This document shows, piece by piece, positions 24,601-33,191 of a stretch of 64,000 bases of DNA. This DNA is from Escherichia coli (GTDB lineage Bacteria; Pseudomonadota; Gammaproteobacteria; Enterobacterales; Enterobacteriaceae). The number at the start of each line of letters is the position of its first letter. Within the stretch, counting starts at the first letter, position 1. Position numbers: made by a program. The stretch lies in NCBI RefSeq assembly GCF_048403405.1, contig NZ_CP183129.1; one strand, 5' to 3'.

Positions 24601-27600
24601 AACATTACGAATTATGTATACGGGTGAAGCACTGCCTAATGATTGTGAATCAATTTTTTGGCTAAATATACTGGATATTTCAGCTAAACCTAAATTTGAA
24701 AATAAAAATAATTTAAATGTAAACTCAAATTATCTTCAACTCCCAATCCATAGTCGCATAAAGCTATTCTATCGTCCAGAAAAACTCACACGTTCTCTCA
24801 GTGAGGCCTATAATTCTGTTATATGGCATATTGAAAAACAAGGAGCAAAGGCCTTTCTTTGTGCAGATAATCAAAGTCCTTATTTTATTACTTATAATCA
24901 TATTACTTTGATTCAGAGCAACTACTCACAATCAATTAATCCAGTAGATATGGTTGCTCCTTATTCTTCAATACGCCTTCCTATACATGGAAATATGTCG
25001 GGATATGGAAAAGTGAAGTGGACAGTTGTTAACGATTATGGTGGGCATGAATTAAGTGAGTCAGCTCTGAAATAAGGATAATATTTATGAAATATTGCAC
25101 TTAAACTGAACATCATTCATTCCTGCCTGCCATATTTATTTCACTGGGAGTTTTTTCCATGGACACAGTGGCTATGGAATATGCTGAATTTGATCCCAGT
25201 TTTTTACAGCATACTCAAGGGAAGACGACGTTAGATATTCATCGTTTCAATCAAGGAAATCCAACTCCAGCAGGAAAGTACTATGCTGATGTTTATCTTA
25301 ATAATAAATGGAAAGGGCTCTGCCTTAGTGTTTCTTACGCCATTTGTCACATTAACATTTTTGGTGTTTACACCTGAAACCTGGGTACATGGAGCAGATG
25401 CTCATACTGAGTTTCCTTATCTTTCCGGTGCGGGAAGGTTAGTTCTGAAAGATACTATGATGATAGCAGCAGGATTTGTTGCAATGGTACATTCTGCAAG
25501 GTGTATCACTAAAAAGTAGTGAACACTATCATTTATCTGATTTTTATTTTCTAGTATTATATGAGGTTATCGCGTCGTGGAGGGGAACTTTCCCCCTCCA
25601 CTCCCACGGAGCCGGACGTGGCAGTATCCCGTCATCTGGCTCTTGTAGTTGACTGGTAACATCGCGTACAAATAGTCCAGTGTGCAAACAAACTGAGTTT
25701 AACATTCCGGATCCTGTCTAATCATTCATACGCTTGAACCAGACTACCGTGTCCCCTCTTGTATTTACGGGTAACCCATTTAGCAAGGTACAGATCGATA
25801 TGTCTGGCTATATAATCCATTACTGATTGACAAAAGCGTCCATAGTACAATACCCACGTAGCCTGAGATTGAGCCAACGTACCATTGTATCCAGTGATAA
25901 CGGTGCTCTGTGGCTTCAATCCTAACCCCGCACTGTCTGACGGATTGCCTCGCAAAAATGGACAATGCCGCTGAGGAACTGGCGTATAGTAATAGAGTCG
26001 CTTTATTGTCGAGTTCGGTGACCGCGACCGCTAGGATGGTCACTTTTGAAAAAGGCGTTTACACAGCATGGTAAACGGACTCGAAATTCTCTTACATATA
26101 CTGAAAATTAATTACAGTAACCTATTCGTTATAACCTGTTTAAACCCACTCCAATTCGTTATTTATCTCACGTCTGATCATGAATATATAAAAATCGCGT
26201 ATGTACGGTATGTCCGGTTAAAGTATTCAATGAAAGTGTCCTGCGTCGGCTTACCTGGCTGGATAAGATCCCGTTTTACTGCATGTTTTTCTGCCCATTC
26301 AGCCAGTATCAGTGAGATAAATTCTGGACCATTATTCATGTGCAGCATGATCGGGTAGCCGCAGTTTGCCGCGATCCTGTCGAGTACACGGATCATTCGC
26401 AGATCTGGCAGATTCAGAATGATTTTAATCGACAATGTCTCACGGTTAAAGTCATCAACTTTAACAGTCCGCCCGGTTTCAACCGACTTAATTACGGCGA
26501 TGATCTGATGCTCAGTAAAACAGGCTTTACGCATAGCGATCTCCTTCGTTGGCAAATTAATTATGCGGGATACTTACACCGTCAACCCCAGTATGCAGAG
26601 GATGAAGCATCAGATCGGAGCATTGTCTGATGGTGCCATACACCAGATTTAACAATAACCCGTTTAATACGCCAAGCTGCAAAGAAGCAATTAAGTATTC
26701 TAAAACAGATAGTTAAAACTTAAACCTTATCTAGGACAGCCCAAATTTTTATTATTTTTTAAATAATCACTTGCTAATGATAATTATATATACATACAAT
26801 GTGATATGTTATAACATAACAAAAAATGGCGGATAGTATGAAAAAATCTATTTTTAATTATACAACATTTTTTATTTCAATGAGTTATTCCTTATTTGCA
26901 AATGCAAGCCCTGCAATAAAATCAACTGAAAATCGGAACAATGAGGTATTAGAGGTCTATTCAACACCTTTGCATACTCCGCAAGAGAAAATGGCGATCC
27001 CCGTTTCTGTTCTGACACAAGAAGATCTACGCGCTAATCGTAGTGCCTCGATTGCTGAAACCTTAACATCCTTACCAGGTTTTCATGCCAGCTTTTTTGG
27101 TGGAGGCTCAGTTCATCCAGTTATTCGAGGAATGTCAGGCAATCGAGTCAAGGTATTACACAGTGGTAGTGATCTTATGGACGTATCCTCTATTGGTGCA
27201 GATCATACAATCACCAGTGAACCCTTTTTAAGTCAACGCATTGAAGTATTAAAAGGCCCTTCAACATTACTTTATGGAGGAGGCACAATAGGCGGTGCAA
27301 TTAATGTTATTGATAGCAAGATTCCTATGTCAGTGCCTGAAAAAGGCTATGAGGGTGAATTGCATTATCAATACGATTCTGTTTCTAAAGGAAATACAGG
27401 ATCAGTAGGATTAACGTTAGGAGAAAATAATTTGGCGCTTCGCCTTGAGGGTACTAAACGTTATCAAAGTGATTACAAACAACCAGAACCTTTACATCAA
27501 GGAGAAACTAGCCGTTTAGCAGGATCTTATCAAGATAACCAATCGGCAAATATTGGTGTATCCTGGCTTTTTGATGACGGTTATATAGGGATTGGTTATG

Positions 27601-30600: not shown

Positions 30601-33191
30601 CCAGAAATTAATGAACTTTATACACATGGCCCTCATTATGCTTATTTAATTGAAGAACAAGGAAACAGTGAATTTAATACCGAAAAAAGCAAAAGTATTG
30701 AATTATCATCTGTTATTGAGATTGGCAATTTCTCTAATAAACTTAATTTGTATAAAACAGACTACAGTGGTTTTAAATTTAGACGATTAACGGGTATCAG
30801 TCGTGGTGCTGGTCCTGTTATGGAATGGGATGACACCGATCTTGAAACAAAAGGATTAGAATATGAATTTAAATATTTATATGAAATGCCTCATGATCAC
30901 AATCTAACATTTACACTATTTGGTGATTTTGTCGAAAATAAAAGCAAAAGAAAACTGTTTATTGCAGGTCACTATTTGCCAAATTTACCTAATGAAAAGC
31001 ATGGTATCAGTATTTATTACCAACATGATGAATTAACTGCATTTAGTAGTGCAACTTACTATAAAAAACAAAAAGAAAGCGGTGGGTTAATGTATGGTGG
31101 AGATATGGCCTTTCCTTCCTATACGTTAGTTGATGCGGGGATTGGCAAAAAATACCACCTTGATAAGGTAGATGTTTCGGTTGATTTTATTATTAATAAT
31201 CTCACCGATACTGAAGCAAGACCTGCATCTTCTCAATTGAAATATTTAGTCCCATTACCGGGTCGAAATTATGGGATAAATGTCAAAATTGATTTTTAAT
31301 ATATTCTGATTTAATAAGATATAAAGTAAGTGAGGTACTCTATGGGTGCCTCTTTTTTTTATAATCATGCACAATTAACTTGAAGATGCATGTTTTAGGG
31401 CTCTATCACATTAAGGTAAGCACACCTGTTTTAATTCTAGACATTTTTTGAGATCTCGGTGCCAACAAGATGTTTCTATCAGTACCAATCCCCAATTCAT
31501 TACCACAAATCTACTTTTCACCAATACGGAGTAAAGGGCGCTAAGTTCGGCTATGCAGGGACCGATTTTTCCTCCTGTGTGCTTTTTGTTCCCGTATCAG
31601 CTTCCGGTTAATCATTTCACGGCACAACCGGTCCCGTAAGGGTGAAGTGCACGCATGCTGCACCCTTGTGGGCCAGAACGATGCCGAGAAAGCGAACTGT
31701 CAGGCGATACGAAGATGAAAATCACATTACTGATGGAGAAAAAACTATGATCACTTCCTTGCATACTCAGACAAGTGCCTCTAACACCGCAACGGCGACC
31801 AGCGTATCCCCGCTGGACCCGTCAGGCTCCTCAAAAACGAAATTTTCCAAAACCAGAACCGATATTTATCAGATCGTTACCGACCTCATCATTACCACAC
31901 TGGAAGTAGGCGTTAAACCCTGAGTGTGTCCGTGGCAGCGCGTACCGGGTATGTCCGGCATGCCTTCCAACTACGCTACTGGCACAGCCTACAGCGGGTG
32001 CAGTGAATCAGAATGAGGATTCAGTGATTCCTGCTGGATGACATACAAACAGGCTAGGGCAGAAGGTGCGCAAGTTCGTAAGGACTAGCACGGCATGACC
32101 GCCATTTTTTATACCATCCTGGAGAAGGAAAACGACACCGGAGAAATTGACCATATCCCGATGCTGAAAACCTTTGTCGTGTTTAATGTCGAACAAATTG
32201 ATGGCCTCTCACTGACGGCAGATACCGTTGCCCCACAAGCGACGTTTGACGCGTTGCCACAGGCTGAAAATCTGTTCTGTAACAGCGGTGCTAACATCAT
32301 TGAGAAAGGACAAAACGCCTTTTTCATGCCATCAACAGATGAGGTTTTGTTACCTGAACGTCGTTTTTTTCCGATGCCGCTAGCTTTTATGCCACGGATC
32401 TGCATGAGATTGTTCACTGGAGCGATGGCAAAAGTCGCCTGAACCGCGAAATGAAAGGAAGATTTAGCAGTGAAAATTATGCATTTGAAGAGTTGATCGC
32501 CGAGCTGGGAAGCGTGTTCCTGATGGCGGATCTGGGGATTGTCGGATAGGTTCAGCACGAAAGTTATATTGCTTCTTGGCTGAAAGCACTGAAAAACGAT
32601 AAGCGCTATATTTTTAAAGCCGCCAGGCAGCATCGAAAGCGCATCGTTATATGATGGATAAGGTCTGAACAGAGGAATAAGACGCCGCAAAGGAATGCGG
32701 CCTTAACCTTATTTTTGGATCTGGCAGAGTGACATAGATTTCAATTTCCCTGCGAATGCGGACGGTAAAGAGCCCGCTCATCCTGCAAACTACATTTTTA
32801 TACTGTTGATAATAGGGTATTCCTTAGTCATGGTAATAAGGCTCAGAAAGCCATATTTAGCTTTCCATAATGGAATATTATCGCCACCTTGAAGAATTCT
32901 TTGTTCCGGTTACAGAATCTGCATTTTTATTGAGAGCAAGGGATTTAACCTGCCACGGCGTGGTCAGATTAAGGATGTGGGCATAGAGCGATTTTTCGGC
33001 CATTAATTTGACGCTGATGCTTACTTTAAATTGTTATTATTTTTTGCCCACTTTTTTAATCTTCCATTCGCGTTGGTATAAGGCGAAGATGTATTAAATG
33101 AGATCATTCGGCCCATCGTCCATTTTTTGTATCATGGTTCACCATACAAAACATCATCAGTTCGTTCATCAATAAGCTTTTGTAGTGGTCA

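Follow-up and report, generated by a model that had tools for sequence, protein, structure and literature searches.

A predicted zinc-starvation operon on an integrative conjugative element in Escherichia coli, pairing a ZnuD-type receptor with a member of a separate TonB-dependent receptor family

The high-affinity zinc site of the outer-membrane receptor ZnuD is built from Asp-99, His-100 and Glu-340 together with His-499 (Calmettes 2015, PMC4557270), and loop 3 of this receptor holds two clusters of His, Asp and Glu residues (Calmettes et al., PMC4557270). In Acinetobacter baumannii the Zur regulon includes the receptors ZnuD1 (A1S_2892), the plasmid-borne ZnuD2 (A1S_3475) and an unnamed third, A1S_2829 (Hood 2012, PMC3516566). 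ZnuD1 and ZnuD2 are each 41-42% identical to neisserial ZnuD; A1S_2829, which lies behind a Zur box, was reported to have 'no significant conservation with ZnuD' and was never characterised (PMC3516566). Regarding the operator, a structure-based pattern for E. coli Zur, TGWNAYRWTATAWYRTNWCA, is available (Gilston 2014, PMC4219657). The subject of the present analysis is a tandem of two TonB-dependent receptor genes, here called R1 and R2, in a stretch of 64,000 nucleotides from contig NZ_CP183129.1 of Escherichia coli (RefSeq assembly GCF_048403405.1), the whole of which is referred to as the window.

The two genes are read here as a zinc-starvation-responsive bicistronic operon that is carried as cargo by an ICEPm1-like integrative conjugative element (ICE), and the probability of this reading is put at roughly 0.7. 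Receptor accessions and start positions are those of the RefSeq annotation of an identical E. coli copy. The operon and its surroundings comprise the following features:

26743-31365, + strand: the whole cargo module (promoter, R1, R2 and terminator), which is the exact extent aligning with Proteus chromosomal loci
26771-26800, + strand: predicted sigma-70 promoter, TTGCTA-18 nt-TACAAT (consensus scan)
26802-26821, + strand: predicted Zur box TGATATGTTATAACATAACA, an exact match to the pattern TGWNAYRWTATAWYRTNWCA
26838-28919, + strand: R1, ZnuD-family TonB-dependent receptor of 693 amino acids (aa), WP_001351060 (start according to RefSeq/PGAP)
28930-31299, + strand: R2, TonB-dependent receptor of 789 aa, WP_004239729 (PGAP start)
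31332-31362, + strand: terminator-like hairpin and T-run after R2 (scan and sequence reading), inside the segment shared with Proteus

The longest open reading frames (ORFs) are slightly longer at the 5' end, namely 26826-28919 for R1 (+ strand, 697 aa, the stop codon ending at 28919) and 28921-31299 for R2 (+ strand, 792 aa, with the first in-frame ATG at 28921). Depending on the R2 start chosen (28921 or 28930), the spacing between the genes is 1 to 10 nt. By sequence reading, both proteins begin with a signal-peptide-like segment that is followed by a TonB-box-like motif (EVLEVYS in R1, DVITVKA in R2). Pfam searches gave the Plug and TonB_dep_Rec_b-barrel domains for R1 and the Plug domain for R2. 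A preliminary description of this DNA, made from the sequence alone, had spoken of twin, paralogous receptor genes 2 nt apart; the close tandem of two intact ORFs stands, the exact gap varies with the start, and the twinning was overstated, as R1 is only 23% identical to R2 (E 4e-36) and each falls in a family of its own.

The box at 26802-26821 shows no mismatch to the E. coli Zur pattern, and its core is the palindrome ATGTTATAACAT (26806-26817), of which this is the sole exact copy in the window. When up to one mismatch was allowed, the Zur pattern matched once in the 64-kb window, both strands considered, with 0.03 matches expected. The box begins 2 nt after the -10 hexamer TACAAT and extends over the predicted start of transcription, its end lying 17 nt before the ATG at 26838. 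Both promoter hexamers are conserved in all Proteus chromosomal copies, and the promoters of orthologous pairs have kept the box in place with 0-2 mismatches amid diverged flanks (six Proteus species, Providencia sneebia, an Enterobacter cloacae replicon and a second E. coli variant). A second operator or promoter for R2 within the 3' end of R1 was considered and rejected, the best match to the Zur pattern there having 4 mismatches. An older 23-bp Zur consensus, GAAATGTTATA-N-TATAACATTTC, gave 6 mismatches for the ICE copy, 3 for P. mirabilis and 4 for Providencia.

The preliminary description had proposed both a Zur-like palindrome and a Fur-box-like AT-rich segment in this promoter. The former proposal holds up, since the box follows the published E. 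coli pattern exactly, is unique in the window and is conserved in orthologous promoters, and the palindrome is supported as a Zur operator on this sequence evidence. The latter does not survive scoring against the 19-bp Fur consensus GATAATGATAATCATTATC. The segment in question, GCTAATGATAATTATATAT (26773-26791), lies in the promoter spacer and agrees with the consensus at 13/19 positions, a value equalled or exceeded at 71 sites in the window, and a 13/19 site also arose in 347/2000 (17%) shuffled versions of the AT-rich intergenic region. The segment is conserved among closely related Proteus copies only and was not found in Providencia or Enterobacter. Fur control was rejected, since the promoter site does no better than chance and lacks conservation beyond Proteus.

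In the ICE copy, 10 bp are missing between the -10 hexamer TACAAT and the Zur box (26795-26821) when compared with the fetched Proteus loci L008, L009 and L015-L018. The deletion brings the box one helical turn nearer to the promoter and changes the left arm from TGTTATG to TGATATG; the replaced arm still satisfies the Zur pattern. In the second E. coli variant pair (L010 4030-4070, L011 3800-3840), a run of nine G lies between the Zur box and the start codon and could be either a slippage-prone tract or a plain Shine-Dalgarno region.

R1 matches the NCBIfam ZnuD model NF038289 at profile positions 9-685 of 685 (E 1.9e-171, 572 bits). Its best solved relative is ZnuD of Neisseria meningitidis, PDB entry 4RDR (E 2.6e-92, residues 61-686), to which it is about 36% identical over 620 aligned residues. 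With the PDB chain index taken as the paper numbering + 14, the four zinc ligands of ZnuD align to D122, H123, E346 and H483 of R1, so that 4/4 are present, and these residues are invariant across 12 R1-like sequences from Proteus, Providencia, Enterobacter and pseudomonads. The positions concerned are:

27201-27206, + strand: R1 plug-apex codons D122-H123, equivalent to ZnuD Asp-99 and His-100 (alignment to 4RDR and to the R1 family)
27630-27755, + strand: His/Asp/Glu-rich extracellular loop 3 of R1, residues 265-306, aligning with the loop-3 clusters of ZnuD
27873-27875, + strand: R1 codon E346, equivalent to ZnuD Glu-340 (alignment to ZnuD)
28284-28286, + strand: R1 codon H483, equivalent to ZnuD His-499 (alignment to ZnuD)

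Loop 3 of R1 aligns with the ZnuD clusters HSHEYDDCHAD (cluster 1) and HDDDNAHAHTH (cluster 2) and is His-rich in all R1-like sequences compared. The long His/Asp-rich loop that had been ascribed to the first receptor is indeed there (16 His and 7 Asp/Glu among the 42 residues 265-306), and the assignment to the ZnuD type is borne out by full-length homology to ZnuD and by the ligands. Because all four ZnuD zinc ligands and the His-rich loop 3 are present, zinc is the specific predicted substrate of R1; the earlier statement that the substrate is unknown no longer applies to R1 and remains correct for R2 only. The nearest relatives of R1 beyond the Morganellaceae and a few enterics are pseudomonad receptors (43-46% identity), and its dN/dS ratio (non-synonymous to synonymous substitution rates) of 0.11-0.12 indicates purifying selection. 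Judged by sequence, R1 is a further member of the ZnuD-type zinc receptors, with the structural and regulatory traits of that type and a score below the NCBIfam cut-off. It is ordinary within its own family, yet unusual in E. coli.

Regarding R2, a sequence search of PDB returned ZnuD 4RDR as the sole match (E 9e-29), and the AlphaFold2 (AF2) model (predicted local distance difference test score, pLDDT, 87) had the same structure as its top Foldseek match (E 1e-39), with haem, pyrroloquinoline quinone (PQQ) and copper receptors as runners-up (E about 1e-27). The barrel residues E419 and H569, which correspond to the zinc-binding Glu and His of ZnuD, are kept in R2 and are invariant in the R2 family. 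At the plug position the family has D, N, E or G, followed by a residue other than His that is usually hydrophobic; the plug His is missing in all R2-family sequences examined, save for a Novosphingobium sequence (L083) that stands apart from the others in its score, its plug residues and the length of its insert. Loop 3 of R2 has 24 residues and contains no His. Two features set R2 apart:

29302-29307, + strand: R2 codons N125-M126, at the positions of ZnuD Asp-99/His-100 (alignment)
29572-29922, + strand: family-specific folded insert of R2, residues 215-331, assigned to extracellular loop 2 by alignment position

The insert measures about 111 residues in nearly all members of the R2 family, compared with 14 residues at the same place in R1. 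It carries a conserved Cys pair (C227, C243) and was predicted with pLDDT >90 in both the whole-protein and the isolated-domain model; the isolated insert gave no fold match in PDB. The dN/dS ratio of 0.07-0.10 indicates purifying selection on R2 as well. Because the plug ligands and the His loop are both missing, R2 was not classed as ZnuD; on sequence grounds it is a distinct sister family with the same Zur-box association.

Close relatives of R2 (63-93% identity) occur in Proteus, Providencia, the Enterobacter cloacae replicon and E. coli. Identity is 36-37% in Pasteurellaceae and 26-33% in Acinetobacter, Stenotrophomonas, Moraxella, Janthinobacterium, Duganella, Novosphingobium, Chryseobacterium, Elizabethkingia, Sphingobacterium and Pedobacter. 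All distant relatives that were translated scored roughly threefold higher with R2 than with R1 and bear the R2 signature (a long insert, lack of the His loop and of the plug His, and retention of Glu and His in the barrel). The family, with the same insert, is widespread in environmental genera (Chryseobacterium, Sphingobacterium, Pedobacter, Janthinobacterium, Novosphingobium, Stenotrophomonas).

Twelve stand-alone relatives of R2 (26-31% identity), with no R1 adjoining, are preceded by a Zur box with 0-1 mismatch, which lies 40-60 bp upstream of the start codon (103 bp in L036). Their hosts are Acinetobacter (nine loci), Stenotrophomonas pavanii, [Pseudomonas] hibiscicola and Novosphingobium, and in each of these loci (10-14 kb) the box is the sole such site. 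In locus L002 of Acinetobacter lactucae the same Zur box is found at -41, and L087 has a box with 2 mismatches. The exact Zur pattern occurs 13 times in the 1.23 Mb of fetched loci, and 13/13 occurrences are directly upstream of either an R1-R2 pair or a stand-alone R2-family gene. As the stand-alone relatives carry the same Zur box, the R2 family itself appears to be tied to zinc starvation; these boxes are the chief argument for counting R2 as part of the zinc-starvation response independently of R1. An A. baumannii genome (L037) holds an R2-family gene with a perfect Zur box, and A1S_2829 may or may not be the R2 counterpart. ZnuD2 of A. baumannii was rejected as the counterpart, its 41-42% identity to neisserial ZnuD being R1-like.

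The neighbours of stand-alone R2 relatives in Acinetobacter lactucae, Chryseobacterium and Suttonella included no recurrent partner genes, and their NCBIfam names gave no clue to the substrate. In A. lactucae (L002 1269-7979) the Zur box of the stand-alone relative sits between divergent genes. Those on the opposite strand code for a protein of 361 aa that matched no family, a flavoprotein resembling D-amino-acid dehydrogenase, a member of the RidA family and a double ABC transporter fused into one chain of 1175 aa, and they may also be Zur-controlled.

Under the proposed mechanism, Zn-loaded Zur of the host would bind 26802-26821 when zinc is plentiful and would block transcription, since the operator borders on the -10 hexamer and spans the site where transcription is predicted to start. 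When zinc is scarce, R1 and R2 would be derepressed as one transcript, the genes lying 1-10 nt apart with no second operator before R2. The His/Asp/Glu-rich loop 3 of R1 would gather free or loosely bound Zn2+, as in neisserial ZnuD, and the ion would be handed to a buried site formed by D122 and H123 of the plug and E346 and H483 of the barrel. TonB-driven movement of the plug, as proposed for ZnuD, would then free the zinc into the periplasm, and the chromosomal ZnuABC of the host would complete import. In the weakest step of the scheme, the substrate of R2 would be zinc in another form, most likely bound to a small ligand that makes up for the coordination lost from the receptor. The Glu and His that R2 retains could hold the metal, with the remaining ligands coming from the carrier. 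Since soil and water bacteria commonly possess the family, a small zinc complex seems likelier than a host protein.

Several observations weigh against the zinc-starvation operon or parts of it. The 572 bits of R1 are below the curated cut-off of 950 bits of the NCBIfam family Zn_piracy_ZnuD; NF038289 is a narrow 'exception' model, and PGAP accordingly names R1 just 'TonB-dependent receptor'. Of the four ZnuD zinc ligands, two are missing from R2, N125-M126 replacing Asp-His, and the case for its role in zinc uptake is co-regulation only. Among the operators compared, that of the ICE departs furthest from the canonical form (6 mismatches to the 23-bp consensus), and its left arm was replaced through the 10-bp deletion relative to the Proteus chromosomal promoters; for these two reasons, repression from the ICE operator could be weaker or altered. 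The R2 relatives of Bacteroidota and Suttonella are without an E. coli-type Zur box, which is uninformative for Bacteroidota and mildly negative for Suttonella. No reports of expression, Zur binding or transport were found for the R1 and R2 genes in the searchable literature. Likewise, no description of R1, R2 or the R2 family was found in the accessible literature, outside which the key papers on P. mirabilis zinc and ICEPm1 lie.

Among other explanations, one leaves the Zur box explained and has R2 import no zinc, bringing in some other aid during zinc starvation such as cobalt, manganese or a cofactor. This is unlikely. In its favour, the plug His is replaced in the R2 family by a residue that is usually hydrophobic, the His loop is missing, the fold neighbours after ZnuD include haem, PQQ and copper receptors, and the family is common in soil and water bacteria. 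Yet the zinc-binding barrel Glu and His of ZnuD are invariant in the R2 family, ZnuD is the closest relative of R2 by a wide margin, and in Morganellaceae and related enterics R2 always stands beside a canonical ZnuD. That R2 should instead be a receptor for a host zinc-binding protein, with the insert as docking surface, is very improbable. Neisseria provides the precedent in TdfH, which uses calprotectin, and TdfJ, which uses S100A7 (PMC6692053, PMC7025491); the folded extracellular insert of about 111 residues with its predicted disulfide, and the occurrence of the ICE in uropathogens and other host-associated Enterobacterales, would suit such a function. Against it stand the wide occurrence of the same family with the same insert in environmental genera and the lack of sequence or fold similarity, beyond the generic barrel, between R2 and the protein-binding receptors TbpA or HasR.

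Equally hard to credit is the view that both proteins are receptors for haem or haemoproteins, driven by Fur under iron limitation. It can draw on weak NCBIfam matches to the TonB-hemin and haemoglobin/transferrin/lactoferrin receptor families, on FRAP/NPNL-like motifs that flank a conserved His (sequence reading), on the first annotation of ZnuD as a haem transporter (PMC4557270) and on the 13/19 Fur-like site in the promoter spacer. The scores for the haem/haemoglobin receptor model TIGR01785 (132 bits for R1, 98 bits for R2) are, however, below the cut-off of 316.85. The Fur match is at the level of chance and is absent from Providencia and Enterobacter, the operator of the module is a Zur box, and the plug His employed by haem receptors is missing from R2. 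No binding of purified ZnuD to haem-agarose was seen, and haem is too large for the ZnuD pocket (PMC4557270).

Uptake of zinc by R1, with R2 under the same Zur control, is the preferred reading. It is conceivable, though less likely than not, that R2 is the first singled-out member of a widespread, uncharacterised class of Zur-tied transporters that may recognise a form of zinc, or a zinc substitute, unlike that of ZnuD, using the folded insert and a half-conserved metal site. The hosts of this R2-like class would include Morganellaceae, Pasteurellaceae, Acinetobacter, Stenotrophomonas, Oxalobacteraceae and many Bacteroidota.

The earlier suggestion that the receptors were horizontally acquired proved right. 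The module (4.6 kb) is 91.7% identical to the locus of P. penneri, 88-90% to those of other Proteus and 79.6% to that of P. mirabilis, and within the ICE the similarity to Proteus chromosomes is confined to 26743-31365. Its GC content is 34%, whereas the ICE backbone has 48% and the E. coli flank 51%, and its borders are a transposase fragment on one side and an ArdC pseudogene on the other. The pair is resident in Proteus chromosomes, where it follows uhpABC-like and afuABC-like genes. Since the similarity is confined to 26743-31365 and the pair is resident in Proteus, the cargo is a unit lifted from a Proteus chromosome, and the sequence comparison shows the 4.6-kb unit to have been copied into the ICE. 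The tandem R1-R2 pair is kept in six different genomic contexts.

The window from position 5782 on is an ICE of the SPI-7 type, with genes for an integrase, ParA, a DnaB of the SPI-7/island type, ParB, proteins of the STY4528 and STY4534 families, topoisomerase III and a PFL_4669-family protein. The left 5.6 kb are E. coli chromosome with insertion sequence (IS) elements; this flank (1-5600) consists mostly of IS66/ISEc22 and a phosphoethanolamine transferase gene. ARAGORN detected no tRNA gene in the window, and an attachment site of the ICE was not obvious there. The 14-15 kb around the module are 99.8-99.9% identical in P. mirabilis ATCC 29906 (L012) and Providencia stuartii NCTC11800 (L013). 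The receptor region is 100% identical in 13/5426 complete E. coli genomes and was missing from the plasmid collection searched. The exact R1 and R2 proteins are found on at least 1000 contigs, including those of Klebsiella and Morganella, and both carry the database name 'MULTISPECIES: TonB-dependent receptor [Enterobacterales]' only. The ICE has spread the module through Enterobacterales.

An nrp-like non-ribosomal peptide synthetase/polyketide synthase (NRPS/PKS) siderophore cluster begins some 6 kb downstream and occupies 37213-62937. It includes two ABC transporters and a receptor of its own, and IS remnants lie between it and the module. The cluster is related to yersiniabactin and encodes synthases of 3071 aa and 2034 aa, a thioesterase, an oxidoreductase and a phosphopantetheinyl transferase (PPTase). 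Its receptor is a divergent TonB-dependent receptor of 662 aa (60949-62937). In the divergent intergenic region of the cluster the best match to the Fur consensus (60891) has 5 mismatches, and no Zur box was found there. A link between the module and the cluster, such as the import of a zinc-nrp complex by R2, was rejected as the default: IS remnants separate the two, the module occurs in Proteus chromosomes without nrp, and relatives of R2 occur in genomes without nrp. The observation that no importer, TonB or biosynthesis genes adjoin the pair holds for its immediate neighbours, which are IS and pseudogene remnants, and needs the qualifier that a siderophore cluster with ABC transporters stands about 6 kb downstream. 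The label 'metallophore piracy' finds no support, no biosynthesis genes travelling with the module in any context examined.

In the Proteus loci L008 (1-7699) and L009 (940-8793), a uhpA/uhpB/uhpC-like set and an afuABC-like ABC transporter are found directly before the receptor pair. We take the arrangement of afuABC-like with uhpABC-like genes to fit the transport of sugar phosphates rather than of metal. The afuABC-like transporter was rejected as the cognate importer, as it is outside the copied segment and is absent from the Providencia, Enterobacter and E. coli variant contexts.

Other cargo of the ICE includes what looks like the remnant of a speF operon (22339-23042, - strand), consisting of a gene for the speFL leader peptide and an Orn/Lys/Arg decarboxylase gene cut short to its N-terminal part. 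The window also holds what looks like a decayed chaperone-usher operon (23867-25377, + strand), in which a fimbrial subunit and a chaperone are accompanied by an usher reduced to its N-terminal piece. In Providencia sneebia, the E. cloacae replicon and the E. coli variant (L006, L007, L010) the receptor pair is flanked by intact fimbrial operons, and the second E. coli variant pair (77% and 83% identical) adjoins IS110 fragments and fimbrial genes. The ICE backbone also encodes a four-helix-bundle protein of the ClbS/DfsB family, known from colibactin self-protection (15101-15619, - strand), of which a broken second copy lies near an IS110 element (33021-33176, - strand); no colibactin genes were found in the window.

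To our knowledge, E. coli has no dedicated TonB-dependent zinc receptor. If the above reading is true, R2 together with a canonical ZnuD on a conjugative element would be a portable, two-channel system of outer-membrane zinc uptake for Enterobacterales, of a kind normally missing in E. coli. An ICE that installs a ZnuD-type gate under the control of the host's Zur would give uropathogens and other Enterobacterales a transferable means of resisting the sequestration of zinc by the host. In Neisseria and Acinetobacter, receptors of the ZnuD type are candidates for vaccines, and the surface-exposed homologues of Proteus and E. coli may be relevant in the same respect. The ligand of the R2 family, of which no characterised member was found in the accessible literature, would once identified add a route to those known for bacterial zinc acquisition.

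Compared with known systems, R1 resembles ZnuD of N. meningitidis (TdfJ; 4RDR/4RDT/4RVW) in full-length homology, the four zinc ligands, the His/Asp/Glu-rich loop 3 and a Zur-type operator; it differs in scoring below the NCBIfam ZnuD cut-off, in being ICE-borne in Enterobacterales and in having pseudomonad receptors as its closest outside relatives. R2 has the same ZnuD as its closest solved relative by both sequence and fold, and differs from it by Asn-Met in place of Asp-His in the plug, by the absence of a His-rich loop 3 and by the extra folded insert of about 111 residues. With the E. coli Zur operators (znuABC, zinT, ykgM/L31p, pliG; PMC4219657) the predicted box shares the exact TGWNAYRWTATAWYRTNWCA match, the central TATA and the overlap with the promoter, whereas its 6 mismatches to the 23-bp consensus and its deletion-made left arm set it apart. 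The likeness to A. baumannii lies in several TonB-dependent receptors behind Zur boxes, one of them on a mobile replicon; there, the receptors are at separate loci, whereas here they form an operon pair. Judged by its sequence, the element is an ICEPm1-like ICE of the SPI-7 type that fits the account in PMC5820359, in which the work of Flannery (2009/2011) on ICEPm1 of Proteus mirabilis, a member of the SPI-7 family, is cited. The likeness to ICEPm1 consists in the backbone genes and the nrp-like NRPS/PKS cluster downstream, and the difference is that the element described here resides in an E. coli chromosome.

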